64,000 nucleotides of DNA, taken from NCBI GenBank assembly GCA_030583785.1, contig CP129475.1, positions 1,106,209 through 1,170,208 of the forward strand, given 5' to 3'. How positions within the stretch are numbered: the first letter of the stretch is position 1; each line of letters starts with the position of its first letter. Source of the DNA: Candidatus Dojkabacteria bacterium. Lineage in GTDB: Bacteria > Patescibacteriota > Dojkabacteria > B142 > OLB20. The translations under genes and the position numbers were made by a program. Positions 27,253 through 62,819 of this stretch are shown piece after piece. The notes beneath the pieces were generated by a model. That model saw nothing but the letters and a program-made list of their open reading frames with translations, was not told the origin of the DNA and searched no databases.

Positions 27253-27326
27253 TGCCGGGTCGTCTAAAGGTAGGACTTTGGTTTCTGGCACCAAAAATCG
27301 GGGTTCGAATCCCTGCCCGGCAACCA
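27253..27326 (+). tRNA. tRNA-Gln (anticodon CTG), CCA encoded
   Basis: Acceptor TGCCGGG/CCCGGCA with U1-A72, D-stem GTCT/GGAC, anticodon stem TTGGT/ACCAA with loop TTCTGGC, T-arm CGGGG-TTCGAAT-CCCTG, then discriminator A and CCA. Confidence 0.75.
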
Positions 27327-28784
27327 AGTTGTACTCCCTGTATGGTCAACTATACAGTCGAATGGTTCGAGCCATGTAAATTCAATCTTTTTGTTCTTCA
27401 AAATAAAGTTCGAGCCGACCGAAATTAGTACCTCTTTTCTGTCATAGTGATCTCCAGTTGTGAATACTAAATGTGCCATTCTAGCTACAATAATCATACG
27501 CTCATACTGTTCGAGCCATCTATTTCCTGCCTTTTCGCATTCCTTTAGAGTCTGTTTTGCATTTTGAGACTCCATTACAAGTTGCCCTATTTGCAAATCC
27601 AAATCTTCTTTAGGTATTATTCCATCTGAGTAAAGATCCAATAACCTAGATTTTTTTAATTCAATCTTCTTAACTTCATTATTCCAAAAATCAAGACTTC
27701 CTATATATGCATCTGTTTCTATTTTGTTTCTCTCTTTTAAGCCAGCCAAAATAGCCTTTTGAACATCTTCATCAATGGAAATCCTTTTGAGCTGTGTCTC
27801 TATTTGTTCATTGAGCAATTCTTCTCGTATATATTTTTGAGAGCAAGTTCCTTTTTTCTTCGTGCATCGATAGTAAGTATGTCCTTTTTTTATCTCAGAT
27901 GTTATTGAACAACCACATTCGCCACAGTGAAATAGACCATGATACATAGACATGCCCTTTTTTCTTTTTAACATTGATGGTTTTCCTTTCATTTTCATAA
28001 TTTTTTGTACCTGTAAAAATTTACCAATATTTACAATGGGCATGTGAGCACCCTCATATCTCTCCCCCCCATAGACCAATACTCCTGCATAAAATGGGTT
28101 TTTAAGAGTGTTTTGTATCATACTCTTAGATAACATATTACCACTTTTACTCCTTAGTCCCCATTTAAAAGATTCTTGCCTGATCTCAGTCATCGTGTAA
28201 TTGCCTGTGCCATACTCATAAAAAAGTTTTTGCACTAGATAAAACTTTTCAGGATCTGGAAGAATTTTTTTATCTCGATTTATGTATCCTAATAGTGCTT
28301 GTGTTGGCCATTCACCTTTTTTCAACTTTGTTTTTTGTCCTCTTTTGATATTTTGACTTAGACTGTCAACATAGTATTTAGATTGGCCAAACGCTAGACT
28401 TAAACTGAACTTACCTTGAGGAGAGTTATCGACCCAATAAGTTGGAAATTTTAAATCTCTAATAACACCTCTATCCATTAAATAAATAATCTTTCCACCA
28501 TCAATTGAATTTCTAGCCAACCTATCGGGGTGCCATGCAATAATACCACTTGCAACACCGCTTTCTAGTAATTCAATCATTTTATTAAAAACTTCGCGAC
28601 CAGGTTCCTTAGCAGTTTTAGATTCTATGAAAACTTCAACAACTGTAAGTTTATTACTCAACGCAAATTCCTTTGCTTCAGAAATTTGGGACTCTATTGA
28701 TTGGACTTGACGATTATCTTCGTCAGTTGATTTACGACAATAGATAAAATATCTTATATCTGTTGTGCCTATTGATTTATTCAT
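27264..28784 (-). CDS. large serine recombinase (integrase)
   Basis: 506 aa. The resolvase-type catalytic N-terminus 'YCRKSTDEDNRQVQSIESQ' has the serine nucleophile. It is followed by a recombinase domain and Cys-rich zinc-ribbon ('CGECGC...CTKKKGTC'). The last ~20 codons run antisense through the tRNA-Gln 3' half. Confidence 0.8.
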   Translation of the reverse strand: MNKSIGTTDIRYFIYCRKSTDEDNRQVQSIESQISEAKEFALSNKLTVVEVFIESKTAKEPGREVFNKMIELLESGVASGIIAWHPDRLARNSIDGGKIIYLMDRGVIRDLKFPTYWVDNSPQGKFSLSLAFGQSKYYVDSLSQNIKRGQKTKLKKGEWPTQALLGYINRDKKILPDPEKFYLVQKLFYEYGTGNYTMTEIRQESFKWGLRSKSGNMLSKSMIQNTLKNPFYAGVLVYGGERYEGAHMPIVNIGKFLQVQKIMKMKGKPSMLKRKKGMSMYHGLFHCGECGCSITSEIKKGHTYYRCTKKKGTCSQKYIREELLNEQIETQLKRISIDEDVQKAILAGLKERNKIETDAYIGSLDFWNNEVKKIELKKSRLLDLYSDGIIPKEDLDLQIGQLVMESQNAKQTLKECEKAGNRWLEQYERMIIVARMAHLVFTTGDHYDRKEVLISVGSNFILKNKKIEFTWLEPFDCIVDHTGSTTWLPGRDSNPDFWCQKPKSYL

Positions 28785-49350: not shown

Positions 49351-49471
49351 TTGGGGCTTACTTTCTTTATCTATAGCCGAAATAAGAAAGTAAGCAAAGA
49401 AAGTTGGCTTTCCATTTAACAAGGAATAAATTTTAAGGTACAATGAGACATATTACTTTGCATTCATTACT

Positions 49472-49678
49472 TTGATGAATTCTATCGCAGAAAAAATACG
49501 AAATAAAAGGTCGGAATTAGGTTTAACCCAAGAGCAACTAGCAATTAAAGCTGGTATCCCTTATACAACGCTCTCAAAGATTGAAAATGATTTAGTCCCC
49601 AATCCCACAATAAAAACATTAAAAAAAATTGCTGATGCTTTGGGTATTTTAGTTGACGATTTATTAGGTAATGATTAG
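49472..49678 (+). CDS. XRE-family HTH regulator (possible controller of downstream R-M module)
   Basis: 68 aa, 'LGLTQEQLAIKAGIPYTTLSKIENDLV'. Its 3' end overlaps the SNF2 gene start by 8 nt. Confidence 0.65.
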   Translation: MMNSIAEKIRNKRSELGLTQEQLAIKAGIPYTTLSKIENDLVPNPTIKTLKKIADALGILVDDLLGND

Positions 49679-52600
49679 AAATTTTAATAATAGAACAACT
49701 AAAGTTGGAGATGATCTAAAAAACACAGTTACTAGTAAAAGCAAAGTTGATGTCGCAGCTGCACTATTTTCAATCTATGGATTTGATTCTCTTAAAAAAG
49801 AATTAAATAAAATCCAATCTATGCGATTTATATTTACAGATCCTACATTTATTGAACTGGATAAAAGCCGAAGAGAACAAAGGTTATTCAAAATAAACGC
49901 GAATTTAACCCAAAAATCAATAAACGGAACAGCTTTAGAGATAAATTTGAGAAACGAACTTAAGGGTAAGGCAATTGCAAAAGAATGCAGGTTATGGATT
50001 GAAAAAAAGGTGAAATTTAAAACAAATACTAGCCATAGGTTTATACAAGAGCAATTAATCATTAATAACGAAGATGAACAATACTTATACAATGGCATAA
50101 ATGAGTTTAGTAGTGCAGGCTTTGGATATGAAAAGGACAATGCAATACTTAGGCAAATTATTAAAACTGATGAGCCTGAAATGACTCGAGAATTCATCAA
50201 AAATTTTAATGAGGTCTGGAATGACGAGTCGGCATTAAAAGATATTACTGATGAGGTTCTTGATTACATAGCGGATTTATATAAAGAAAATTCTCCTGAA
50301 TTTATTTACTACTTAACATTGTTCAATATCTTTGATGAATTCTTGGAAGATATTACTGAAGATGAGTTAGCAAATGAGAAAACAGGATTCAAAGAATCAG
50401 TTGTTTGGAATAAATTGTACGATTTCCAAAAAGACGCTGTACTTGGGATTATAAATAAACTTGAGAGACATAATGGATGTATCCTTGCAGACAGCGTTGG
50501 TCTTGGTAAGACTTTCACAGCTTTAGGAGTAATTAAATACTACCAAGAAAGAAACAAGAGTGTTCTAGTTCTATGTCCAAAAAAACTAAGTGATAACTGG
50601 CAAACATTTCTTGGTAATTATGAAGACAATCCTTTAATAAAGGATAGGTTTAACTATCATGTTCTGTATCATACAGATCTACTGAGAGAACGAGGATTTT
50701 CAAACAGTATTGATTTATCGAGGATTAATTGGGGTAATTACGATTTACTTGTAATTGATGAATCACATAACTTTCGAAATAATGATCAAAGAAAAGATAA
50801 ACTGACAAGATATCAGACTTTACTAAATAAAGTAATTAAGACTGGTGTAAAAACAAAAATTTTAATGCTCTCTGCAACACCAGTAAATAATAGATTTACA
50901 GATTTAAAAAATCAAATTGCTTTAGCATATGAAGGTAAAGTTGATTCTGTTGATGAGAAAATGGATGTTACCAAATCAATTGATGTTATTTTGAGGAATG
51001 CTCAAAAAACTTTCAACGATTGGTCTAAACTTGATATCGAGGAAAGAAACGCCAAAACTTTATTGCAAATGTTAAGTGGTAATTTCGATTTCTTTAAACT
51101 TCTCGACAGCATTACGATCGCACGAAGCCGAAAACATATTGAACGCTATTACGACTCAACAAAAATTGGTAAGTTCCCAAACAGACTTAAACCAATTACA
51201 CATAGATCGAATATTACGAATTTACCCAATTTTATAGAGATTAAAGATTTATATTTAGCCCTCTCAAAGCTTAATTTATCACTGTATACTCCATTTGAAT
51301 ACATTCTAGAAGATAAAAAAGGGTTCTATAGTGATATTTATGATACTAATGTCTCTGAAAGAGTTAGCTTTAAGCAACTTAGTCGAGAACAAAGTCTACA
51401 AAAGCTTATGAGGGTCAACTTACTAAAACGATTAGAAAGTTCTGTTGACTCGTTCAGAATTACCTTGGATAAGTTTATTCAGAAAGTTGAGCATGTCCTT
51501 TCAAGTATTGAGAAATATGAGAAGGAAGGGCTAAATTTTAAAAATAATTCAATTAGTATCGAGACAAATGAAGTCGATTTCGAGAACGAAGATTGGCTAG
51601 ATGAAGATTTCAGTATTGGTGAGAAAGTAAAAATTAATCTCGAAGACATGAATACTACTGGTTGGAAAGATGATTTAAATGCGGATTTAAAGATAGCTTC
51701 TGATTTACTCGCCGAAATGAAGAAAGTGACACCAGAACATGATACAAAACTAATCGATCTAAAAGGATATATTGAGAATAAAATTAAAAATCCAATTAAT
51801 GCAGGTAATAGAAAAGTACTTATCTTCAGTGCTTTTGCAGATACTGTAAATTATCTGTATGAAAACTTAGCACCATATCTCAAGAATAATCTTTCTTTAG
51901 ATGTTGCAAAGGTAACAGGTTCGGATAAAAATGAAGCAACTTTGAAGATTGATACTCAATTCAATAACTTACTAATTCATTTTTCTCCGATTTCAAAGGG
52001 AAGACAGGACAAATACGCTGAAAATAAAGATATTGATGTTTTGATAGCAACTGATTGTATATCAGAAGGTCAAAATCTACAGGATTGTGATACCTTGATT
52101 AATTATGATATTCATTGGAATCCTGTTCGTATTATTCAAAGGTTTGGAAGAATTGACAGAATTGGGTCAAAGAATAAGGATATTCAGTTGATTAATTTTT
52201 GGCCTCAACTATCCTTAGATGATTATATTAATCTTAAGAATCGTGTCGAGACTAAAATGTTTATTGTTGATGCGACAGCTACTGGTGAAGATAATGTATT
52301 AACAAATGAATCTTCTGACCTACTTTTTCGAAAAAAACAATTAGAAAAATTGCAAAATGAAGTAGTTGATATCGAAGATATGGATTCAGGAGTATCAATT
52401 ACAGACTTAGGACTTAACGATTTCAGGATGGATTTAGTTTCGTATTTAAACAGAGTAGGTACATTAGAGAATATTCCTAATGGAATGCACTCTGTTTGTA
52501 GAGCCAATAAATCCATAGGTGTAGATAGAGGTGTAATTTTTGTTCTGAAAAATCTCAATAATGAAGTAAATATTGATAAAACCAACCAATTACATCCATT

Positions 52601-52925
52601 CTATTTGGTGTATATTCGTGAAGATGGAGAAATTTTATCAAATCATCTTAATGTTAAGAACACCCTTGATATTTTGAGGTCTATTTCAAAAGGTCAATCA
52701 GAGCCAATCAAAGATGTGTATGCACTCTTCAACGAGGAGACAAATGATGGAAAGGATATGCATAAATACTCTGAGTTGTTGAACAATTCAATCAGTTCAA
52801 TATTAAATGTAAAAGATGAATCAGATGTTGATAGTCTTTTTAAGGTTGGAGGCACAACTGCCCTTATCAATAGCATTAAAGGGCTTGAAGACTTTGAGTT
52901 AATTTCATTTATTGTGATAAAGTAA
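49671..52925 (+). CDS. SNF2-family (SWI2/SNF2) helicase-like ATPase
   Basis: 1084 aa. Motif I 'ADSVGLGKTFTALGV', motif II 'DLLVIDESHNFRN', 'LSATPVNNRFTDL', and the helicase-C block 'ATDCISEGQNLQDC...NPVRIIQRFGRIDRIGS'. Confidence 0.75.
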   Translation: MIRNFNNRTTKVGDDLKNTVTSKSKVDVAAALFSIYGFDSLKKELNKIQSMRFIFTDPTFIELDKSRREQRLFKINANLTQKSINGTALEINLRNELKGKAIAKECRLWIEKKVKFKTNTSHRFIQEQLIINNEDEQYLYNGINEFSSAGFGYEKDNAILRQIIKTDEPEMTREFIKNFNEVWNDESALKDITDEVLDYIADLYKENSPEFIYYLTLFNIFDEFLEDITEDELANEKTGFKESVVWNKLYDFQKDAVLGIINKLERHNGCILADSVGLGKTFTALGVIKYYQERNKSVLVLCPKKLSDNWQTFLGNYEDNPLIKDRFNYHVLYHTDLLRERGFSNSIDLSRINWGNYDLLVIDESHNFRNNDQRKDKLTRYQTLLNKVIKTGVKTKILMLSATPVNNRFTDLKNQIALAYEGKVDSVDEKMDVTKSIDVILRNAQKTFNDWSKLDIEERNAKTLLQMLSGNFDFFKLLDSITIARSRKHIERYYDSTKIGKFPNRLKPITHRSNITNLPNFIEIKDLYLALSKLNLSLYTPFEYILEDKKGFYSDIYDTNVSERVSFKQLSREQSLQKLMRVNLLKRLESSVDSFRITLDKFIQKVEHVLSSIEKYEKEGLNFKNNSISIETNEVDFENEDWLDEDFSIGEKVKINLEDMNTTGWKDDLNADLKIASDLLAEMKKVTPEHDTKLIDLKGYIENKIKNPINAGNRKVLIFSAFADTVNYLYENLAPYLKNNLSLDVAKVTGSDKNEATLKIDTQFNNLLIHFSPISKGRQDKYAENKDIDVLIATDCISEGQNLQDCDTLINYDIHWNPVRIIQRFGRIDRIGSKNKDIQLINFWPQLSLDDYINLKNRVETKMFIVDATATGEDNVLTNESSDLLFRKKQLEKLQNEVVDIEDMDSGVSITDLGLNDFRMDLVSYLNRVGTLENIPNGMHSVCRANKSIGVDRGVIFVLKNLNNEVNIDKTNQLHPFYLVYIREDGEILSNHLNVKNTLDILRSISKGQSEPIKDVYALFNEETNDGKDMHKYSELLNNSISSILNVKDESDVDSLFKVGGTTALINSIKGLEDFELISFIVIK

Positions 52926-52926
52926 T

Positions 52927-53544
52927 ATGAATTTACAGTTACCAAATAAAGCTCGAGTACAAAAATTTATTCCAAAGAATAAGTTTTTTGCTAAGGCAGT
53001 TGTAAATTCAAAGCTAAAGGACGACTTTACTATCAAAATTGAGAAAATCACATGGCTTTATAAGGTCTCAGAAGAAACTGTTGGAATTCCAAAAACTAAA
53101 AATGTAGAAGAGATTCAAGTTTTTGAAATTATACTAAAGGAACAAGTTATACCTAAGAATATAATAACCTTAATAGATAAGACAATCCCATACCCAATAC
53201 TCTATCGTTTTTTTTATAAAGATCACTTTGCCTTCGGTATTACATACAAAATTGATGGAAACTTTAGTAACTTCTACTCCGAATGGGACTATCCACTTGA
53301 ATTTGAATTTAATGCAAAAAACCTAGAAATTGTGTATCAAAACATCGTGAAAGAGTTTATGCATAAATCGGAAAAGCCACAATTTGAAGAAGCATTCGAA
53401 GACGACAAACAGATTAAGATTCTTGAAAAAAACATTACAAATTTAAAAAATAGGATTAAACTTGAAACTCAATTTAAAAATAAAGTAGATTTGAATGAGG
53501 AGTTAACAAAACTTAAGTTACAATACAATAAATTATTAAACTAA
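52927..53544 (+). CDS. hypothetical protein accompanying the SNF2 helicase (possibly DUF4391-like)
   Basis: 205 aa. The start is 2 nt after the helicase stop. No catalytic motif seen. Confidence 0.3.
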   Translation: MNLQLPNKARVQKFIPKNKFFAKAVVNSKLKDDFTIKIEKITWLYKVSEETVGIPKTKNVEEIQVFEIILKEQVIPKNIITLIDKTIPYPILYRFFYKDHFAFGITYKIDGNFSNFYSEWDYPLEFEFNAKNLEIVYQNIVKEFMHKSEKPQFEEAFEDDKQIKILEKNITNLKNRIKLETQFKNKVDLNEELTKLKLQYNKLLN

Positions 53545-53551
53545 AAACAAT

Positions 53552-55396
53552 ATGAAAAAACTTTCTTTTAAAACACCAGATTTATCTATCGAGAATATTG
53601 AGAAATTACAAAAGTTATTTCCTAATGTTGTAACAGAAAAACAAAATGAGGTAGGCCAAATTGTTAAATCTATTGATTTTGATCTATTAAGACAATTATT
53701 GTCTGATAGTATTGTTGAAGATGAAAACGAGCGATATAGATTAGATTGGCCTGGTAAAAAAGCTTCATTACTGAAAGCAAACACCCCTATTACTAAAACA
53801 CTCAGACCAATTAGAGAAGAAAGCGTTAATTTTGATACAACACAGAATCTCTATATTGAGGGTGATAATTTTGAAGCATTGAAAATACTTCAAGAATCAT
53901 ATCTTGGTAAGATAAAGATGATTTATATTGATCCACCTTACAATACTGGTAAGGATTTTGTTTATAAGGATAATCGTAGTGTTAGCAAAGAAGATTATGA
54001 AGATCAGTTAGGTGTAGAAGATGAAGAAGGAGGAAAGTTATTCAGAAATACAGATACAAATGGAAGATTTCATAGCGATTGGTTATCTATGATGTATGAA
54101 AGATTATTGATTGCAAGAGACCTTTTAAAAGACGACGGAGTAATTTTTATGAGTATTGATGATAATGAAGTTCATAATTTAAGAAAAATTAGTGATGAAG
54201 TATTTGGAGAAGATAATTTTATAATTAATATTTGCCATAAATCAAGAGCTTCTGTTTCGAACGATAAGATTGTATCACCCAACCACAATCACATTCTGCT
54301 TTATGCTAAAGATATTGAAGTTATTGAGTCAATTCGAAGCTCTTTTGGTATAGAACCTGATTTAAATGGCTTTACAAATAGAGATGAAATGGGTGAATAC
54401 AAATTAGTACCAGTTGACGGTCCTGGAGGTGCAATGAAAGGGAATCCGTACTATGAGTTTCTAGGTATAAAAGGATATTGGAGATTTTCGAAGACTACAA
54501 TGCAAAAAATGTATGAAAATGGATTAATAATCAAAAAGGAAAATAGTTTACAACAAAAATATTATAAACAAGATGCAGAAAAAACTAGGAAAACTGTAAC
54601 TTCATGGTGGGATGATAAATTTTATACTTCAAATGCTACAAGAAGTTTAGCTGAGTTGATGGGTGGAAAAGTATTTGATAATCCTAAACATTTAGAATTG
54701 ATAACTAGAATGCTTACTCTACATGTTAGAGATGATAACGATATTGTACTGGACTACTTCTCTGGGTCTGCGACTACTGCTCATGCACTACTTCTACAAA
54801 ATGCTAGAGATGGAGTAAATAGAAAGTTTATTATGATTCAATTACCTGAAGAAACGGATGTAACTAGTGAAGCATATAAATCAGGTTATTTAAATATATG
54901 TCAAATTGGAAAGGAAAGAATTCGCCGAGCAGGTAAAAAAATTATTGCCGATTTTCAAGAACAATTGGAAAAGAGAGAGACACCATTAGATATCGGTTTT
55001 AGAGTCTATAAGGTTGATTCTACTAATATGAAAGACGTGTACTATCACCCATCGGATCTTACTCAGACTACTCTTGAAACTCTTATAGACAATGTAAAAG
55101 ATGACAGAACATCTGAAGATCTATTAACTCAAGTGATGCTTGATTTGGGCTTAGAGCTAACATTACCGATAGAAGTAAAAGAATACTCTGGTCATAAAGT
55201 GTTTTTCGTACAAGGTAATACTCTAATTGCCTGTTTTGAAAAAATAAAGGATTTTTCAATCGTTGATGATTTAGCAAAGCTAGAACCACTAAAGGTAGTA
55301 TTAAAAGATTCAAGTTTTGTAGATGACAAGGATAGAATCAATTTTGAGAATAGATTCAAGAGATTTTCACCCGATACTCAGATAACAGTGATTTAA
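53552..55396 (+). CDS. Type III R-M Mod-like N6-adenine DNA methyltransferase (beta-class)
   Basis: 614 aa. Motif IV 'IYIDPPYNTG' precedes motif I 'VLDYFSGSATTAHA', the beta-class order. Confidence 0.75.
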   Translation: MKKLSFKTPDLSIENIEKLQKLFPNVVTEKQNEVGQIVKSIDFDLLRQLLSDSIVEDENERYRLDWPGKKASLLKANTPITKTLRPIREESVNFDTTQNLYIEGDNFEALKILQESYLGKIKMIYIDPPYNTGKDFVYKDNRSVSKEDYEDQLGVEDEEGGKLFRNTDTNGRFHSDWLSMMYERLLIARDLLKDDGVIFMSIDDNEVHNLRKISDEVFGEDNFIINICHKSRASVSNDKIVSPNHNHILLYAKDIEVIESIRSSFGIEPDLNGFTNRDEMGEYKLVPVDGPGGAMKGNPYYEFLGIKGYWRFSKTTMQKMYENGLIIKKENSLQQKYYKQDAEKTRKTVTSWWDDKFYTSNATRSLAELMGGKVFDNPKHLELITRMLTLHVRDDNDIVLDYFSGSATTAHALLLQNARDGVNRKFIMIQLPEETDVTSEAYKSGYLNICQIGKERIRRAGKKIIADFQEQLEKRETPLDIGFRVYKVDSTNMKDVYYHPSDLTQTTLETLIDNVKDDRTSEDLLTQVMLDLGLELTLPIEVKEYSGHKVFFVQGNTLIACFEKIKDFSIVDDLAKLEPLKVVLKDSSFVDDKDRINFENRFKRFSPDTQITVI

Positions 55397-55403
55397 CTTC
55401 TGA

Positions 55404-58400
55404 TTGATAAAAATTATGAAATTAAAATTTAAACAACAAAAATATCAATCAGATGCTACTGAGTCAATTACGAACCTATTTCTTGGACAATCAAAGGGTT
55501 TAAGAAAAGAAATGGTAGGTAGACAAGGGTTTATGGTTGAAGAGATATTTTCAAATAAGAAATTAGAACTTTCTGAAGCTGAAATTCTAAACAATTTACA
55601 ATTAGTTCAAAAACAAAATGCCTTAAAGGTTTCAAAGAAACTTGAAGGACTGAACTTTACAGTTGAGATGGAAACTGGAACTGGTAAGACATATGTTTAC
55701 ACAAAAACTATGTTTGAACTTAATAAGTTGTATGGTTGGAGTAAGTTTATTATTCTCGTCCCATCTGTTGCAATTAGAGAAGGTGTTAATAAGTCATTAG
55801 AAATCACATCAGACCATTTTCAAGAAATATATGGAAAACGAATCAGATTTTCTATTTACAACACTCAAAACAAGTCGAATTTAAACAATATAAAGTCATT
55901 TGCAAATACTAGTAACATCGAAGCCATCATAATGAATTATCAGGCTTTCGCTACGAATAGCAAAGAATCACGAAAGATTTTTCAGAAACTTGATGGACTG
56001 CAATCTGAAAAACCAATCGATATTATTAAAAGATCTAGACCAATATTGATTGTTGACGAACCTCAAAGATTTGGCAATGCCGAATCAATGTTCCATGAAT
56101 TCAACCCTTTGTTCATATTAAGATATTCAGCAACACATAAAGCAGACAAAGAATACAACAAGGTTTATAGCCTAGATGCAATTGATGCATTTAATCAAAA
56201 ACTTGTGAAGAAGATTAGTGTTAAAGGAATTGAGGTCGTTGGTAATAGTGGTACAAATAGTTTCCTATTTCTAGACAGAATAAATATTAGCAAAGATTCA
56301 TTTCCAACAGCGAATATTGAACTTGAAGTAAAGCAACAGAGTGGCATTAAGAAATCAATAAGACGAATAAAAGAGACAGATGATTTGTTCCAATTGTCAG
56401 GAGAGTTACAACAGTATAAGGGTTTTGTTGTTAAAGAAATTAATGGATTATCAAACAAAGTTAGTTTCATTAATGGTATATCCGTAAGTGTTGGACAAAC
56501 AATTGGAGATGTCGATGAAGTTCATCTTAGAAGGATTCAGATTAGGGAAACAATTAAATCTCACCTTGAGAAAGAACAAACGATGTTTTCTAAGGGAATA
56601 AAGGTTTTATCGTTATTTTTTATTGATGAAGTATCTAAATATAAGACATATGACGATAATAACAATGAAATAAAGGGTGATTATGCAAAAATATTTGAAG
56701 AGGAGTATGAACAAGCTACTAGTCAAAAATCATTATTCAATCAGGAGTATAACGCATACCTTGAAAAATTTAGAGTTAGCGAAGTGCATAATGGATACTT
56801 CTCTATTGATAAAAAAGGAAGAATTATTAATTCGACTGAAAAAAGAGGAAGTTTGGGGAGTGATGATGTAAACGCTTACGACTTAATAATGAAGAATAAG
56901 GAGAGATTACTTAGTTTTGAAGAACCTACAAGGTTTATATTTTCCCATTCGGCACTCAGAGAAGGTTGGGATAATCCGAATGTTTTTCAGATATGTACTT
57001 TAAAACATAGTCAATCAACGATAAGCAAAAGACAGGAAATAGGTCGAGGACTTAGGATTAGTGTGAATAACGATGGGGATAGAATGGACTTTGAAAAACT
57101 TGAGACAGATTTCTTTGGTGTAAATACTCTCACTGTTATCGCAAGTGAATCTTATGATAATTTTGCACGAGAATTGCAAACAGAAATTTTAGACTCATTA
57201 TCCGATAGACCTATTAAGCTAACTGTTGATGTTCTGAAAAATAGAATACTTAAGAATACTGAAGGAGCTGAGTATTTATTTGATGATACAAAGGCAATGA
57301 ATCTGATTTTCAAGTTTCGAGAAAATGGATACTTGTCGGAAGACTATACATTAACTGAAAAACTTATCAAAGATATTGATAACGAAACATTGCTATTACC
57401 TTCTGACTTAAAAGAATATTCAATAGAAGTATCACAGATCATGAAGAAAATCTATGATACTGCAACATTTACAGCTACAAGCAATGAGAAAGCGGATAAT
57501 GTATTTGAAAAAGAATTAAAACCTAACGATAACTTTGCGAAAAAAGAATTTCAAGAACTTTGGAGCAAAATAAAAGTAATGACTGTTTATGATGTTTCAT
57601 TCGAAAGTAATGAGCTTATTAGTAAATCCGTAGAAGCGATTAATAAAGAATTAGAAGTAAGAAAAGTCATAATTAAAACAACACAAGGAGGACAAGTCGA
57701 AGAATTAACTGAGGAACTTTTGAAGGCGGGTGAAAGTATGACTTCAGCAAATATTCAGACTATGAGTGCAAAATCTATATTAGGAAATGTTAAATATGAT
57801 TTGATTTCAGAAATTACAAAAGGAGCAAATATAACAAGACAAACCGCTGTATCAATTTTACAAAAGATTAGTTCTCATAAGTTTGAATTATTCCAAGAAA
57901 ACCCTGAAGATTTTATTCAAAAAATAGTCAACCTTATTAATCAAGAAAAAGCAACAACCCTGATAAACAACATTACTTATTCGAAAATCAATGCGACTTA
58001 TGGAGATGACATTTTTACAATTAACAACTTTCAGGGATCATTACAGAAGAATATTCTTGAAGTAAAAAAACACATATACGATTACGTTAAAACAGACTCT
58101 GATGTAGAAAGAAAATTTGCAAATGACATGGAGAATGGAGAAATCTTAGTTTATGCAAAACTACCAAGCGGTTTTAAAATTCCTACACCTGTTGGTAATT
58201 ATAATCCCGATTGGGCTATCGTCTTTGATACCACAGACGTTAAATATATCTATTTTATAGCTGAGACCAAAGGTAGTATGAGTACAATGGATTTGAAGAA
58301 GACAGAGGAGTTAAAAATTGAGTATGCAAGAAAGCACTTCGAGTCGCTTGGAAACAAAGACATTAAGTATGATGTGATTACTACATACGATGATTTAAGG

Positions 58401-58418
58401 AATAAAGTAATGCAATAA
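55404..58418 (+). CDS. Type III restriction enzyme Res subunit (SF2 helicase + nuclease)
   Basis: 1004 aa. Motif I 'METGTGKTYV', motif II 'ILIVDEPQRF', 'ICTLKHSQSTISKRQEIGRGLR' (motif VI-like), and a C-terminal PD-(D/E)xK-like region. Confidence 0.7.
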   Translation: MIKIMKLKFKQQKYQSDATESITNLFLGQSKGLRKEMVGRQGFMVEEIFSNKKLELSEAEILNNLQLVQKQNALKVSKKLEGLNFTVEMETGTGKTYVYTKTMFELNKLYGWSKFIILVPSVAIREGVNKSLEITSDHFQEIYGKRIRFSIYNTQNKSNLNNIKSFANTSNIEAIIMNYQAFATNSKESRKIFQKLDGLQSEKPIDIIKRSRPILIVDEPQRFGNAESMFHEFNPLFILRYSATHKADKEYNKVYSLDAIDAFNQKLVKKISVKGIEVVGNSGTNSFLFLDRINISKDSFPTANIELEVKQQSGIKKSIRRIKETDDLFQLSGELQQYKGFVVKEINGLSNKVSFINGISVSVGQTIGDVDEVHLRRIQIRETIKSHLEKEQTMFSKGIKVLSLFFIDEVSKYKTYDDNNNEIKGDYAKIFEEEYEQATSQKSLFNQEYNAYLEKFRVSEVHNGYFSIDKKGRIINSTEKRGSLGSDDVNAYDLIMKNKERLLSFEEPTRFIFSHSALREGWDNPNVFQICTLKHSQSTISKRQEIGRGLRISVNNDGDRMDFEKLETDFFGVNTLTVIASESYDNFARELQTEILDSLSDRPIKLTVDVLKNRILKNTEGAEYLFDDTKAMNLIFKFRENGYLSEDYTLTEKLIKDIDNETLLLPSDLKEYSIEVSQIMKKIYDTATFTATSNEKADNVFEKELKPNDNFAKKEFQELWSKIKVMTVYDVSFESNELISKSVEAINKELEVRKVIIKTTQGGQVEELTEELLKAGESMTSANIQTMSAKSILGNVKYDLISEITKGANITRQTAVSILQKISSHKFELFQENPEDFIQKIVNLINQEKATTLINNITYSKINATYGDDIFTINNFQGSLQKNILEVKKHIYDYVKTDSDVERKFANDMENGEILVYAKLPSGFKIPTPVGNYNPDWAIVFDTTDVKYIYFIAETKGSMSTMDLKKTEELKIEYARKHFESLGNKDIKYDVITTYDDLRNKVMQ

Positions 58419-58440: not shown

Positions 58441-58656
58441 ATGAATAGACAATTAGTTAGCTCATCAAACATTGCAAGTATTGGATACGATCCAGATATG
58501 CAAACTCTTGAAATACAATTTCATAACGGAGGTATTTATCAATATTATAATGTTCCAGTAAGCATTTATAATGCATTAATGTCTGCATCTTCACATGGTG
58601 CTTACTTTGATCAACACATCAAAAAATCAGGTTATAGATTTAGTAAAGTAGGATGA
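58441..58656 (+). CDS. KTSC-domain small protein
   Basis: 71 aa. The '...IGYDPDMQTLEIQFHNGGIYQYYNVPVSIYNALMSASSHGAYFDQHIK' pattern matches the KTSC (PF13619-like) consensus as I recall it. Its stop overlaps the next start (ATGA). Confidence 0.55.
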   Translation: MNRQLVSSSNIASIGYDPDMQTLEIQFHNGGIYQYYNVPVSIYNALMSASSHGAYFDQHIKKSGYRFSKVG

Positions 58657-60425
58657 AAATAAGTAGTATAAATATACACAATTGGCGTTCAATAGAAAAT
58701 CTTTCACTCAAATTTGAAAATTTGATGATTTTTATTGGACAGAATAATCATGGGAAATCAAATGTTTTATCAGCAATTCTATTTTTCTTTGGTGAAGTGT
58801 CATTAAATATCACTGATTATAGAAAAGGAACAAATGAACTTTGGGTTGAATTAGAGTTTGTAGATTTAGATGAACATGATCAAACACAGTTTAAAAAATA
58901 CCTAACGACATCAAAGAGTATTAAAGTAAGGAGAACAGCAAATTCTGAGAATGGAGTTTCGTATAACGGATATACTCAAATACCTAAGAATATATTACTT
59001 AGTGAATCAATATTATCTGACTATACCAATCGAGAAAAAGCACAAGAGCTTCCGTATTATTCGTTACTGCCTTCTTCGGGAAGAATTACAAAAACTTTAC
59101 TCTCGGAGGCTTTAACAAGCTATCTAATTAACAATGCTAGTACGATTGAATTCGAATATAAGCTTGAAGAAAGCGGTTTTCTAGGTGCAAAAAATATTGC
59201 ACAAGGAATTTTCGGTACAGTAATCTTTGTCCCTGCTTTGAAGAATACATTGGACGAGTTATCTACAAAAGGTTCTTCCACTTTCAGTAAACTTCTTTCA
59301 AAAGTTATAACTGAGATGTCGGAAAATAATGATAAGTATAAGGAAGCAAGAGACAAAATTAAAGATTTAACAAAGATATTAAATAAGCAAAAAGATGATG
59401 GAAACTATAATGAAGAAAGACCAAAAGAATTAACCTCATTGGAAGAGAAAATTGAATCACAATTAATTACATGGAATACTAAAATTGATATTGAAATTTT
59501 CCCACCAAATATTGATGAAATTTTTAAACTTGGTACACAGGTATGGATTGATGATGGTGTCAAGACGGATATTAGTCATAAAGGACATGGTTTGCAAAGA
59601 TCAATCTTGTTTGCATTAATTAGATCTTGGGTTGATGTGTCTCAAGCGATTAAAAAAACAGAAGAGAGTGACGAAGATTTAGGAAGGAGATCGTCAAAAT
59701 CGACTTTCTTTGTTTTAGAAGAACCTGAATTGTATTTACATCCACAAGCACAAAGGGAGTTTTTTCAAGTATTGAAAACCCTTGCTGAGGGAGAAAATCA
59801 AATAGTACTAAGCACACACTCAAGCTATTTTATCGATTTAGCGTTGTATAAATCAATCTGTATAGTTAAAAAAGAAAGCTCTACATCTCCAACGGTTTGT
59901 TTTCAATGCTCAGATGATTTACTCGAAATGGTTGAAGAAAAGAAAGCATTCAATTTAACATACTGGATAAATCCTGATCGTGGAGAACTATTCTTTTCAG
60001 AAAAAACTATACTTGTCGAGGGTCAATCTGAGAAGACAATAATTCCTTTTCTTGCTAGTAGAATCGGAGTTTTTAAACATAGCTATACAATTGTAGATTG
60101 TGGTAGTAAAACTAACATCCCACTTTATATTCACCTCCTAAATAAATTTAAGCTCCCATATGTAGTCGTGTATGATAAAGATCATCAAGAAGGCAAAAAT
60201 TCACAGGCGATTCAATCAGCTGATATCGCTACTAATGCGATAACTGAGTCAATTGATACCTCTTTAGGAATAAGCATAGAGTTAATCAATGATATTGAGG
60301 AAGAGATAGGAATTACTGATAAAAGGGCACATGGTAAGCCATTTGAAGCACTTGAGCATATCACTCACAAATCATATTTGATATCTGAGGCTTTGAAAAA
60401 TAAAATTATCACAATTTATAAATAA
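58653..60425 (+). CDS. OLD-family nuclease: N-terminal AAA_15/ABC-type ATPase + C-terminal Toprim domain
   Basis: 590 aa. Walker A 'GQNNHGKSN', Walker B/D-loop 'FFVLEEPELYLHP', H-loop 'LSTHS', and Toprim 'TILVEGQSEKTIIPF' ... 'VVVYDKD'. Confidence 0.75.
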   Translation: MKISSINIHNWRSIENLSLKFENLMIFIGQNNHGKSNVLSAILFFFGEVSLNITDYRKGTNELWVELEFVDLDEHDQTQFKKYLTTSKSIKVRRTANSENGVSYNGYTQIPKNILLSESILSDYTNREKAQELPYYSLLPSSGRITKTLLSEALTSYLINNASTIEFEYKLEESGFLGAKNIAQGIFGTVIFVPALKNTLDELSTKGSSTFSKLLSKVITEMSENNDKYKEARDKIKDLTKILNKQKDDGNYNEERPKELTSLEEKIESQLITWNTKIDIEIFPPNIDEIFKLGTQVWIDDGVKTDISHKGHGLQRSILFALIRSWVDVSQAIKKTEESDEDLGRRSSKSTFFVLEEPELYLHPQAQREFFQVLKTLAEGENQIVLSTHSSYFIDLALYKSICIVKKESSTSPTVCFQCSDDLLEMVEEKKAFNLTYWINPDRGELFFSEKTILVEGQSEKTIIPFLASRIGVFKHSYTIVDCGSKTNIPLYIHLLNKFKLPYVVVYDKDHQEGKNSQAIQSADIATNAITESIDTSLGISIELINDIEEEIGITDKRAHGKPFEALEHITHKSYLISEALKNKIITIYK

Positions 60426-60427
60426 TT

Positions 60428-61465
60428 ATGTCAAAAATCATACAGTTAGACCAAAGGCTTAAAAGAACAAAGATTACATCGTTTGAAATAGAAAATGATG
60501 TGGTTTTCAATTATTTCAATAACCTTACTGATGGAGAAAGAGATGAGAAACTACAGAAGGCATTGTATATCGGTGTATTAGCATTGATGGAAGACAGATT
60601 GTCCTCATTCTTATCTAAGACTCAAAATGAATTAGGTACAGAATTGGAAAGCCTAAAAATGATTTTTGATATGAAGAAAGAAATCTTTTTCAAAACTACA
60701 GTTAAAGGTATGTTAGCTGAAGATGATGTAGCGGAGTTCCTAAATAGTTACTTTAAAGATAAAAAACTGAAGGATCGTGCTGAACTTACTGGAACTTCAG
60801 AAGGTTTATTACCAAAGAATAAATCAGGGGATATTATATGTTATGTAGATGGAGAAGAAGATAAGAAAATTGCATTAGAGATAAAATTCGATAAATCAAT
60901 GCGACTTGGTGATATCGAGAATAAAGATGTGTTTACTAAGAAACAAGATACTGCATGGAGCCAAATAATTGAAGCAAAAGCAAATAGAGGCTCTAAAGTA
61001 GGGATTATTGTCTTTGATATTTCCTTATGTGACAATTCTATCTTGAAGTTTACGGATAGTGTTGGATTTATCGATGGCATAGGTTTTATCGTTATAGTTG
61101 ATTCACAAAAAGGTAATTATTCAAATCTTGTAATTGCCTACAATCTAGCGAGAGATATTGTTATCAATGCTAAGGAGATTGAGTTTGATTCCAAGACACT
61201 CACTCTCATATTAAAAAGAATAATAAAAGATATTGATACATTCTTATCGATAAAATCCTTAGTGGAAAGCAATATTCAAACTAATGTCGAGATATTAAAG
61301 CAATTAGAAAAAGGACTATTACAGATGGAATTTAATCAGTTATATCTTCAAAAGTTTTTAACAGACGGCAAGCTTAATGAAAAAGATTTACTTGAGTTTT
61401 ATACCGCAGAGGATATAAAAGAAAAGTTCAAAGCCATAGAAAGTGAGCTTAATAGTAAGATTTAA
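60428..61465 (+). CDS. hypothetical protein, possible PD-(D/E)xK-fold nuclease
   Basis: 345 aa. 'ICYVDGEEDKKIALEIKFDK' has the D...E-x-K spacing. The start is 2 nt after the OLD stop. Confidence 0.3.
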   Translation: MSKIIQLDQRLKRTKITSFEIENDVVFNYFNNLTDGERDEKLQKALYIGVLALMEDRLSSFLSKTQNELGTELESLKMIFDMKKEIFFKTTVKGMLAEDDVAEFLNSYFKDKKLKDRAELTGTSEGLLPKNKSGDIICYVDGEEDKKIALEIKFDKSMRLGDIENKDVFTKKQDTAWSQIIEAKANRGSKVGIIVFDISLCDNSILKFTDSVGFIDGIGFIVIVDSQKGNYSNLVIAYNLARDIVINAKEIEFDSKTLTLILKRIIKDIDTFLSIKSLVESNIQTNVEILKQLEKGLLQMEFNQLYLQKFLTDGKLNEKDLLEFYTAEDIKEKFKAIESELNSKI

Positions 61466-61482
61466 TTTTATTACTTAATTAT

Positions 61483-61713
61483 ATGCAAACATATACTAAC
61501 AGAGGCGGGGATTCGAATGTACAAAGTTTTGAAAATGGCGATGACTACATAATTGTTGAATTTGGTGGAAATGGTAGATTCACGACTTACAAATATACTT
61601 ATGCTAGTGCAGGTCAACATGCTGTCGAGGAAATGAAAGATCTTGCTTTAGCAGGTCATGGACTTAATTCATATATTTCTTCGAACAAGCCTAATTATTC
61701 CGAAAGATGGTAA
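61483..61713 (+). CDS. second KTSC-domain small protein
   Basis: 76 aa. '...IIVEFGGNGRFTTYKYTYASAGQHAVEEMKDLALAGHGLNSYI' matches KTSC. It overlaps the next gene by 7 nt. Confidence 0.5.
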   Translation: MQTYTNRGGDSNVQSFENGDDYIIVEFGGNGRFTTYKYTYASAGQHAVEEMKDLALAGHGLNSYISSNKPNYSERW

Positions 61714-62819
61714 ATGATAGCTTTATCAAGGAAAGGTCTTACTATGAAGACATTTTTGATCTTCTAACTATCGAAGAAGCGTTAAGAATAAAAAATGATT
61801 CCCCCTCATCTGATAATTCCTACTCTGACAAATTTCCGCCTGAAACAGTAAAAGCTATGCGAAAAACAGTTAATGAACTACTGTTGTTTTTTTATTTAGG
61901 TGAAAGAGTAAAGAAAAAAAAATTGTATCTTGAAAGAATGTTGTCGGAAGATAAAGAAAAACAGCAATTTTACGACTCTAAGTTTGAACCAAACAACATA
62001 TTATGCCCATATTGTAAGTCACCTTTTAAGCTGATTGATAAAACATTAGATGACTACTCTAGTTCACAAATGCAAGTGATTTTTATGTATGAATGTATTA
62101 GTTGCAAGAAAAGGTCTTGTTTCTTTTCTGATGGCAAACTTAAAACATTTCCACCTGACGAATGTTCTAACTGTAAAAGTACTGATATTTCTGAAAAGTC
62201 AGTACAAACCCCAAGAAAAACTACTATTACTGCGAAATGTAATTCATGTGGTCATATTAATGAAACTATTTACGATTTGGATGAATTAGAGCAATCAAGG
62301 ACAGAGAGAGAAAAGTACAAGAATTCAATGTTTATGACATACAGAAGTGAATTTTGCCTTGATGAAAACTCTAAAGAGTATAAATCGTACATACATAGCT
62401 TAAATTCTCTTGAAACAATGAAAAAGCTTACAGCTGAATTTGAGGGTAATAGTCATGATCCAGTTATTCCGCTAATAAAAAGTATTTCGATTAAAACAGT
62501 TATTCAATTGGAAGATATTATTAATAAATCAATAAAAGACGACGGTTATGATCGATTTGTTTTGGGAGTTCCAGTTATTGATAAAGATGTTATTATTCAA
62601 TTCACTCTTTATGATATTAAAGGACGACCTGAACTTGAATCTACATATGAGCTTAAGAGAATCATAAAGATAGCATTAACAGATACTAATTGGAGACTGA
62701 TGAGCGAGGGAATCACTTATAATCTAGGAATCTTGTCAGGTAGATTGCGAGGTTATCAAGCTGAGAAATCTATTTACGAGTTAGCAAGGCAAAAGTATAA
62801 AAAGCAAACTAAGACTTAA
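61707..62819 (+). CDS. multi-zinc-ribbon protein, hypothetical
   Basis: 370 aa with four CxxC pairs ('CPYCKS', 'CISCKK', 'CSNCKS', 'CNSCGH') suggesting two zinc ribbons. The C-terminal half has no recognisable motif. Confidence 0.4.
   Translation: MVNDSFIKERSYYEDIFDLLTIEEALRIKNDSPSSDNSYSDKFPPETVKAMRKTVNELLLFFYLGERVKKKKLYLERMLSEDKEKQQFYDSKFEPNNILCPYCKSPFKLIDKTLDDYSSSQMQVIFMYECISCKKRSCFFSDGKLKTFPPDECSNCKSTDISEKSVQTPRKTTITAKCNSCGHINETIYDLDELEQSRTEREKYKNSMFMTYRSEFCLDENSKEYKSYIHSLNSLETMKKLTAEFEGNSHDPVIPLIKSISIKTVIQLEDIINKSIKDDGYDRFVLGVPVIDKDVIIQFTLYDIKGRPELESTYELKRIIKIALTDTNWRLMSEGITYNLGILSGRLRGYQAEKSIYELARQKYKKQTKT

Follow-up and report, generated by a model that had tools for sequence, protein, structure and literature searches.

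Why should the two genes of a Type III restriction-modification (R-M) system be preceded, on the same strand, by genes for a SNF2-family helicase and a small protein partner? The question is raised by a gene array in a stretch of 64,000 nucleotides (nt) from a Candidatus Dojkabacteria genome (contig CP129475.1), referred to below as the window. An earlier note had placed five open reading frames (ORFs) here and read them as an expanded Type III R-M module composed of an XRE-family helix-turn-helix (HTH) gene, a SNF2 helicase gene, a gene for a protein of 205 amino acids (aa), mod and res. All five ORFs were found where they had been placed, on the + strand, and the module was borne out by the profiles of Mod and Res and by the recurrence of the order SNF2-DUF4391-Mod-Res in other genomes. 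The last four genes, which we call the cassette, form a widespread, conserved and experimentally accessible variant of Type III and not a new category.

Type III R-M enzymes hemimethylate a short asymmetric site, and their ATP-dependent cleavage needs two inversely oriented unmodified sites. They are the textbook case of ATP-triggered DNA sliding, and the cassette represents a large natural branch in which a second motor of the chromatin-remodeller type and an uncharacterised partner are added. The literature searched (on DUF4391, on Type III with SNF2, and lactococcal and BREX surveys) gave no description of the cassette and no test of the function of its two extra genes; for DUF4391 only two mentions were returned, both irrelevant. 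In the lactococcal R-M survey a complete Type III system consists of one M- and one R-encoding gene, and neither a SNF2 helicase nor DUF4391 is mentioned. The extra genes are easily overlooked because Mod and Res are all that the PADLOC Type III models recognise and because NCBI names the helicase generically (helicase-related or SNF2-related).

Assignment of Mod and Res

Mod was matched by Pfam N6_N4_Mtase and, over its full length, by PADLOC MTase_III (703 bits). It was aligned to the EcoP15I Mod chain (4zcf_A, 1.5e-58) and to another solved Type III Mod. The order of motifs given for it earlier, that of the beta class, was read directly in the sequence: motif IV (DPPY, in IYIDPPYNTG) precedes motif I (FxGxG, here DYFSGSATT), with the target-recognition domain (TRD) between them. 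In 117 orthologues IYIDPPYNTG and D.FsGSatT were conserved (at least 95%) and the TRD was not.

Res, which had been described as an SF2 helicase with a nuclease, was matched by Pfam ResIII and RE_endonuc and over its full length by PADLOC REase_III (PDLC03647, 948 bits), and was aligned to the EcoP15I Res chain (4zcf_C, 2.3e-74) in both its helicase and its nuclease parts. An SF2 ATPase is followed by a C-terminal PD-(D/E)xK nuclease, and the Walker A motif, DEPQ, REGWDNPN, RQE.GRG (the arginine-finger region) and PDWAI...AETKG were at least 95% conserved in 83 orthologues. ATG 55416, and not TTG 55404, marks the start of the conserved N-terminal part of Res. The mod gene lies directly upstream of res on one strand with a 7 nt spacer, and this order was kept in the relatives.

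The pair is like the classical Type III systems EcoP15I and EcoP1I in having mod upstream of res, a beta-class N6-adenine Mod with a central TRD and a Res that joins an SF2 ATPase to a C-terminal PD-(D/E)xK nuclease, both proteins aligning to EcoP15I. It differs in the conserved SNF2 and DUF4391 genes before mod. Res matches on plasmids fell into two kinds, full-length matches (34-47% identity) and EcoPI-type enzymes, with no SNF2 gene annotated, whose alignment was confined to the helicase half (54% coverage, 32-34% identity). Both profile and structure-sequence comparison set aside a Type I- or IIG-like nature of Mod and Res, which the earlier note had named as a finding that would overturn its reading. 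By every criterion that can be tested on sequence the cassette Mod and Res are predicted to be Type III enzymes, yet of a subfamily of their own, because Res scored below the curated cut-off of the NCBIfam PRK15483 endonuclease equivalog (366 bits against 564) and because of the two extra genes.

Conservation and host range of the cassette

The gene order was assessed from two anchors. The first was a scan with the DUF4391 alignment, limited to one genome per species, which gave 331 confirmed sites; the best 80 loci were examined. The second was a metagenome scan using the N-terminal domain of the helicase as the query (80 loci). From the first anchor, a SNF2 gene was found directly upstream of DUF4391 in 70 of 73 assessable loci; downstream, Mod was found in 63 of 65 and Res in all 48. 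From the second, the helicase was followed by DUF4391 (60/60), Mod (53/53) and Res (41/42). The order SNF2-DUF4391-Mod-Res and the shared strand recur in about 160 independent loci from many phyla, with spacers of 1-7 nt or overlaps. Because the same order is found in so many independent loci, the arrangement is far beyond chance.

In the window the spacers are 1 nt (SNF2-DUF4391), 7 nt (DUF4391-Mod) and 7 nt (Mod-Res), as read at the junctions. The tight boundaries noted earlier therefore hold in kind, and the 8 nt overlap of the XRE and SNF2 genes in number; the gaps, which had been counted as 2, 8 and 8 nt, do not.

The hosts in the anchor-1 set include groups of the candidate phyla radiation (CPR), DPANN and Thermoplasmata archaea, Omnitrophota, Planctomycetota, Desulfobacterota, Gammaproteobacteria, Bacteroidota, Spirochaetes and Bacillota. 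The cassette is also plasmid-borne in Escherichia coli, Listeria, Enterococcus, Bacillus cereus and Lactococcus. The order was kept on plasmids of E. coli, Acinetobacter, Sulfitobacter, Listeria, Lactococcus and Mycolicibacterium in which DUF4391 is only 24-32% identical to the window copy; in these distant cassettes the helicase is about 50% and Res 43-46% identical to the window proteins. Within an E. coli collection the cassette was present in 10 of 5426 genomes, where NCBI labels the four products helicase-related protein, DUF4391 protein, methyltransferase and Type III endonuclease. Because the cassette is common on plasmids of E. coli, Listeria, Enterococcus, B. cereus and Lactococcus, experiments on it should be straightforward, and it bears on phage resistance and on the barriers that limit plasmid transfer.

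Several loci that looked fragmented under genetic code 11 were intact under code 25, in lineages that read UGA as a sense codon (Gracilibacteria, Peribacteria and Vampirococcus; L004, L013, L030, L038, L042, L050 and L052). The cassette has therefore spread into recoded lineages. No conserved flanking genes were found around related cassettes; apparent 'families' of upstream genes were rejected as antisense ORFs over the conserved start of the helicase gene.

Guest genes recur in the gaps of the cassette, of the RhuM family (about 340 aa) between Mod and Res and of the Bro-N or ORF6N type (about 280-310 aa) between DUF4391 and Mod (L002, L007, L025, L011, L015, L024, L040 and others). Similar hitch-hiker genes occur in Type I operons. 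Tandem cassettes, in which a second SNF2 gene comes immediately after Res, were seen in three loci (L134, L170 and L042). Eight IMG/VR contigs classed as viral carry the cassette (L171-L178), four of them with an XRE-like gene abutting the helicase gene. On a Planktothrix plasmid (L090:8950-14532) a distant homologue of the helicase (29.5% identity) precedes not DUF4391, Mod and Res but a 711-aa hypothetical protein, and a Type I R-M operon lies alongside; this locus may be a sister system.

Co-divergence of the components

Co-divergence was computed over 68 complete cassettes. The mean pairwise identity was 0.61 for the helicase, 0.60 for the Mod framework, 0.55 for Res, 0.37 for DUF4391, which is the fastest-evolving framework of the cassette, and 0.23 for the Mod TRD. 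The divergences of the helicase, DUF4391, Res and the Mod framework were strongly correlated (Spearman 0.68-0.86; SNF2-Res 0.855, SNF2-DUF4391 0.79, DUF4391-Res 0.78), and no two of the 68 cassettes shared a near-identical helicase while their Res proteins were divergent. The TRD was uncorrelated with all other parts (rho -0.13 to 0). Two E. coli plasmids (L081 and L179) illustrate this: helicase, DUF4391 and Res are 99.5, 97.8 and 99.8% identical, and the TRD is 22-55% identical over about 200 residues. From the co-divergence of the frameworks and the uncoupled TRD it follows that the cassette is inherited as a unit and that its specificity is exchanged by TRD swapping. In both of these plasmids a gene for a LAGLIDADG homing endonuclease adjoins the cassette.

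These results bear on whether SNF2-DUF4391 could be a separate two-gene system that merely lies near this clade of Mod-Res in defence islands. Defence genes do cluster, and unrelated genes (RhuM, Bro-N, ORF6N and TIR-like) are inserted inside the cassette. Against this stand the invariant order and strand, the short spacers or overlaps, a strong co-divergence with no swapping of modules, and the fact that the pair is essentially never found alone, so that the earlier note's other refuting case, a pair occurring mostly without mod and res, fell away. We regard an independent neighbour as scarcely credible.

Loss derivatives and direction of dependence

Where they were checked, the full-length Res matches on plasmids lay a few kb from a SNF2 match in the same record or belonged to deletion derivatives of the cassette. 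Three plasmids carry Mod and Res of the cassette clade without SNF2 and DUF4391. In Enterococcus faecalis pE006-19, a 19.8 kb resistance plasmid, a scar (L088:6803-7043) runs from the first 31 codons of SNF2 into a stretch that matches the last 57 codons of DUF4391; intact Mod and Res follow, with Res 97% identical to those of complete cassettes. This plasmid is a natural knock-out of SNF2 and DUF4391. On a Staphylococcus hominis plasmid Mod and Res are intact with no trace of the other two genes, and Res is 78% identical to that of complete cassettes of Listeria and Lactococcus; a C. taeniosporum plasmid likewise carries only an intact Mod and Res. In a rough count of plasmid records, 142 had a full-length Res match and 109-117 a helicase match, the thresholds being different and the Res set including a few outgroup enzymes. 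In the reverse direction, SNF2 with DUF4391 and without Mod or Res was not found among the anchor-1 loci except in one rearranged and one truncated locus. The dependence is one-way: Mod and Res can lose SNF2 and DUF4391, and the reverse was not seen.

The nearest parallel in logic is MANTIS (Gao_RL, BREX-related type 2), composed of a DUF499 AAA+ ATPase, DUF3870, a BREX-type methyltransferase and an HKD-SF2 effector (10.64898/2026.09.23.753747). Both are four-gene operons with two ATPases, a small co-regulator, an N6-adenine methyltransferase that sets the specificity and a helicase-nuclease, and the optional small repressor of some MANTIS operons is comparable to the occasional XRE gene of the cassette. 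The components differ throughout (DUF499 AAA+ against SNF2, DUF3870 against DUF4391, BREX-type methyltransferase against Type III Mod, HKD against PD-(D/E)xK), and the PLD-like domain of the cassette lies on the extra motor and is apparently dead. In Pfam and PADLOC scans the window proteins matched none of the MANTIS/Gao_RL families. Identity with the Gao_RL 'restriction-like' system was rejected on these grounds and the analogy alone was kept.

By that analogy, SNF2 and DUF4391 could be needed to load or activate Mod, as MtsA (AAA+) and MtsB are for MtsC, so that methylation and restriction would both depend on them. The MANTIS methyltransferase is unable to bind DNA alone (10.64898/2026.09.23.753747), which together with the shared layout speaks for such a loader. 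No family is common to the two systems, however, and the cassette Mod is an ordinary Type III enzyme that carries a TRD of its own. Moreover, intact Mod and Res persist after clean loss of SNF2 and DUF4391, which would be lethal if methylation needed them and Res were active. A loading function is in our judgement unlikely. Set beside MANTIS, the cassette would serve to test whether methylation-based defence is generally built on 'two ATPases and a small co-regulator'.

SNF2 helicase

The SNF2 gene spans 49671-52925 on the + strand and encodes 1084 aa. Its assignment to the SNF2 family was confirmed by Pfam SNF2-rel_dom and Helicase_C, and PADLOC PDLC01075 ('HKD+Snf2') was matched over the full length (420 bits). 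Both the N-lobe and the C-lobe of the motor are present, with motifs I, II, III and VI intact; GLGKT, DESH, SATP and QRFGRIDR were all found in the window protein and were at least 95% conserved in 125 orthologues (one residue of QRFGRIDR at 70-95%). The sequence matches in the PDB were SNF2 remodellers and RapA. Partial matches were obtained with the DrmD, BrxHI/HII and ZorD models. The C-terminal domain showed high column conservation in 54 orthologues and no match to a Pfam family.

The N-terminal domain (aa 1-245) gave only noise in a PDB profile search and in Pfam scans of 18 members. An AlphaFold2 (AF2) model, built from a shallow alignment of database hits, was poor (predicted local distance difference test, pLDDT, 53). 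Searched against the PDB with Foldseek, its top 20 matches all belonged to the phospholipase D (PLD) superfamily. SauUSI came first (probability 0.98, E=0.03), and it and the NgoAVII R-protein were the best structural matches; phosphatidylserine synthase and polyphosphate kinase were also matched, and the E-values were weak. A PLD-like reading agrees with the description of the PADLOC 'HKD+Snf2' model, and the modelled domain probably adopts a PLD-like fold in which the HKD motif has degenerated. No invariant His was found among 18 diverse orthologues, and hence no HxK(x)4D motif. If PLD-like, the domain would for that reason be no HKD nuclease and appears from its sequence to be catalytically dead. 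The PLD-nuclease/helicase enzymes of the SauUSI, NgoAVII and CglI type likewise place an N-terminal PLD-like domain before an SF2 ATPase on one polypeptide. The cassette helicase differs from them in lacking the conserved His, in its SNF2-type motor and in having the nuclease on a separate protein (Res).

DUF4391 protein

A profile search of the 205-aa protein had been proposed in the earlier note, with DUF4391 as the suspected family, and the suspicion proved right: PF14335 was matched with E=3.6e-36 and 125.7 bits against a Pfam cut-off of 29.9, covering residues 3-197. The family comprises 2787 representatives (E<=1e-3, library at 50% identity). In the AF2 model (pLDDT 90.9) an N-terminal alpha/beta domain is followed by a C-terminal helical hairpin; the protein is basic (isoelectric point 9.05). 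Foldseek searches with this model returned nothing below E=0.03 in the PDB or E=0.05 in BFVD. Seven residues were at least 90% conserved across 290 members, none of them His or Asp, and no catalytic residue constellation was seen in this conservation. DUF4391 looks like a non-enzymatic adaptor or regulator. A role as a specificity subunit was rejected, as DUF4391 does not co-vary with the Mod TRD. In one locus (L180:3868-5010) DUF4391 is fused to an ASCH domain directly after a SNF2 gene, and a small TIR-like gene comes next.

The SNF2/DUF4391 module would contain no nuclease, because the N-terminal domain lacks a conserved His and DUF4391 lacks a catalytic constellation. This bears on the idea that SNF2-DUF4391 is a second effector arm, working alongside Res against unmethylated DNA in the manner of DISARM or BREX, with DUF4391 as a reader of modification or an adaptor. 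The partial matches to DrmD, BrxHI/HII and ZorD and the single ASCH fusion with its TIR-like neighbour can be cited in its favour. Class 1 DISARM also joins a SNF2 ATPase (DrmD), an N6-adenine methyltransferase (DrmMI) and a PLD-type domain in one locus. The cassette, however, contains neither the DrmA helicase nor DrmB (DUF1998), and no third helicase; it has a Type III Res instead. The DrmD match reached 162 bits against a cut-off of 610 and covered the C-lobe only, and the five ORFs of the window cassette include no further component gene of the DISARM or BREX type. A parallel arm is also opposed by the missing catalytic His and by the presence of Res in 48/48 and 41/42 assessable cassettes, so that no SNF2-DUF4391-Mod trios were seen. 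We consider it improbable.

Proposed mechanism

The reading that we favour, and to which we give an even chance, is a self-sufficient Type III core with an accessory, ATP-driven SNF2/DUF4391 translocase module that acts through it. By homology, Mod would recognize a short sequence with its swappable TRD and mark self DNA by adenine methylation; Res, bound to Mod, would use ATP to communicate along the DNA, and its PD-(D/E)xK nuclease would cut DNA lacking the mark. Mod and Res could stand alone. The SNF2 protein (a dead PLD-like N-terminal domain, an intact dsDNA-translocase ATPase and a C-terminal domain) and DUF4391 would form a second module working through Mod-Res and recruited to it on unmodified DNA. 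There the module would drive long-range communication between sites, or clear the path, on protein-covered DNA. Restriction would gain in efficiency or breadth, and methylation would be independent of the module.

Cleavage by Type III enzymes requires that distant sites communicate, which bound proteins can prevent, and SNF2 enzymes translocate on duplex DNA and displace proteins. We infer the link between the two, and likewise that the four proteins associate physically and in which direction the module acts. Of the two roles suggested in the earlier note, modulation of Res translocation and an anti-anti-restriction layer, the former would agree with this reading.

Several points weigh against this reading. 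Co-divergence is expected of any co-inherited neighbours, and the association of the four proteins is drawn from synteny and co-divergence only. No result discriminates between driving, clearing and checkpointing as the task of the motor. The PLD assignment comes from a low-confidence model (pLDDT 53) with E-values of at least 0.03. Finally, the plasmids with only Mod and Res could carry inert remnants, in which case they say nothing about self-sufficiency.

The accessory module may be given a more specific form, in which an active dsDNA translocase, coupled to Mod-Res through DUF4391 (a new fold), replaces or reinforces passive one-dimensional diffusion, so that DNA with a single site, with sites in the same orientation or with roadblocks is cut; DUF4391 would be the coupler or a sensor of the methylation state. 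We rate this form as possible and on the doubtful side. Were it true, translocase-coupled Type III enzymes would close a classic escape route of phages such as T7.

The opposite effect was also considered, namely that motor and partner restrain Res or strip it from host DNA, in a new unmethylated host or after replication, lowering autoimmunity and not boosting restriction. Such a safety or establishment device would suit a cassette that is typically found on mobile DNA: many plasmids and some IMG/VR contigs carry it, and the window copy is cargo of an element resembling an integrative and conjugative element (ICE). SNF2 enzymes are also generally known to displace DNA-bound proteins. Yet the small plasmids that bear the derivatives with only Mod and Res are mobile or mobilisable in their own right, and no feature of the sequence favours inhibition over activation; we hold this to be quite unlikely.

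XRE gene and upstream region

The XRE protein was matched by Pfam HTH_3 (E=2.5e-15) and by PADLOC Control_protein (E=3e-9), in agreement with the controller-like character ascribed to it. Its second codon is an in-frame ATG (49475). As a member of the module it did not hold up: an XRE-like HTH gene directly adjoins the start of the helicase gene in only 7 of 114 assessable cassettes, and was also seen there in the window and on plasmids of Mycolicibacterium and Methylotuvimicrobium. The gene is an occasional regulatory add-on and not part of the core.

Like C-protein-controlled R-M systems, the window locus has a small XRE HTH gene directly upstream of and overlapping the first gene, a control-protein match and repeats in the promoter region; it differs in that the XRE gene is limited to a small minority of cassettes and the repeats are putative operators. 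Descriptions of classical C-proteins concern mainly Type II systems. In this region the number of promoter-like sites was no higher than in shuffled controls, and support for the site listed in Table 1 is weak. Around it the heptamer TTACTTT occurs four times, at 49358, 49387 (reverse complement), 49453 and 49467. Two copies form a perfect 12 nt inverted repeat (49356-49367 / 49384-49395), and two form a direct repeat, ATTACTTTG, 14 nt apart and extending to the XRE start codon. The repeats (49356-49474) may be operators for the XRE protein.

Genomic context in the window

The coordinates of the features are collected in Table 1.

Table 1. Features of the cassette and its surroundings, numbered from the first letter of the window
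Feature	Coordinates	Strand	Remarks
ICE-like mobile element	27253-49300		Starts at tRNA-Gln; restriction cassette is its cargo
tRNA-Gln	27253-27326		Overlapped by large serine recombinase gene
Large serine recombinase gene	27264-28784	-
Promoter-like site TTAACA-17-TACAAT	49416..49444	+	Consensus match only; just upstream of XRE gene
XRE-family HTH protein, 68 aa	49472..49678	+	HTH_3; likely start ATG 49475; overlaps helicase start by 8 nt
SNF2 protein, N-terminal domain (aa 1-245)	49671..50405	+	Probable PLD-like fold, degenerate HKD motif
SNF2-type ATPase core (aa ~246-890)	50406..52340	+	SNF2-rel_dom + Helicase_C
SNF2 protein, conserved C-terminal domain (aa ~891-1084)	52341..52925	+	Column conservation
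DUF4391 protein, 205 aa	52927..53544	+	PF14335
Type III Mod, beta-class N6-adenine methyltransferase, 614 aa	53552..55396	+	TRD ~aa 225-395 (54224-54736)
Type III Res	55404..58418	+	Likely start ATG 55416; SF2 ATPase ~aa 47-561; PD-(D/E)xK nuclease ~aa 888-994 (58065-58385)

The ICE-like element also encodes a LexA/CI-like repressor, a 1367-aa DUF11 surface protein, a VirB4/TraG-like ATPase, an M23 peptidase, a coupling-protein-like ATPase, Replic_Relax and DUF2958. Along the element the GC content drops from about 0.39 to 0.31-0.34.

Directly after Res the same tight co-directional array continues (58441-62819) with a KTSC protein (71 aa) and an OLD-family ATPase-TOPRIM nuclease (590 aa; PADLOC 'Old', 257 bits), and then with three ORFs (345, 76 and 370 aa) that had no Pfam or PADLOC match. 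A second defence system is probably encoded here. In the flanks of the anchor-1 set, OLD-type genes followed Res in only three related loci.

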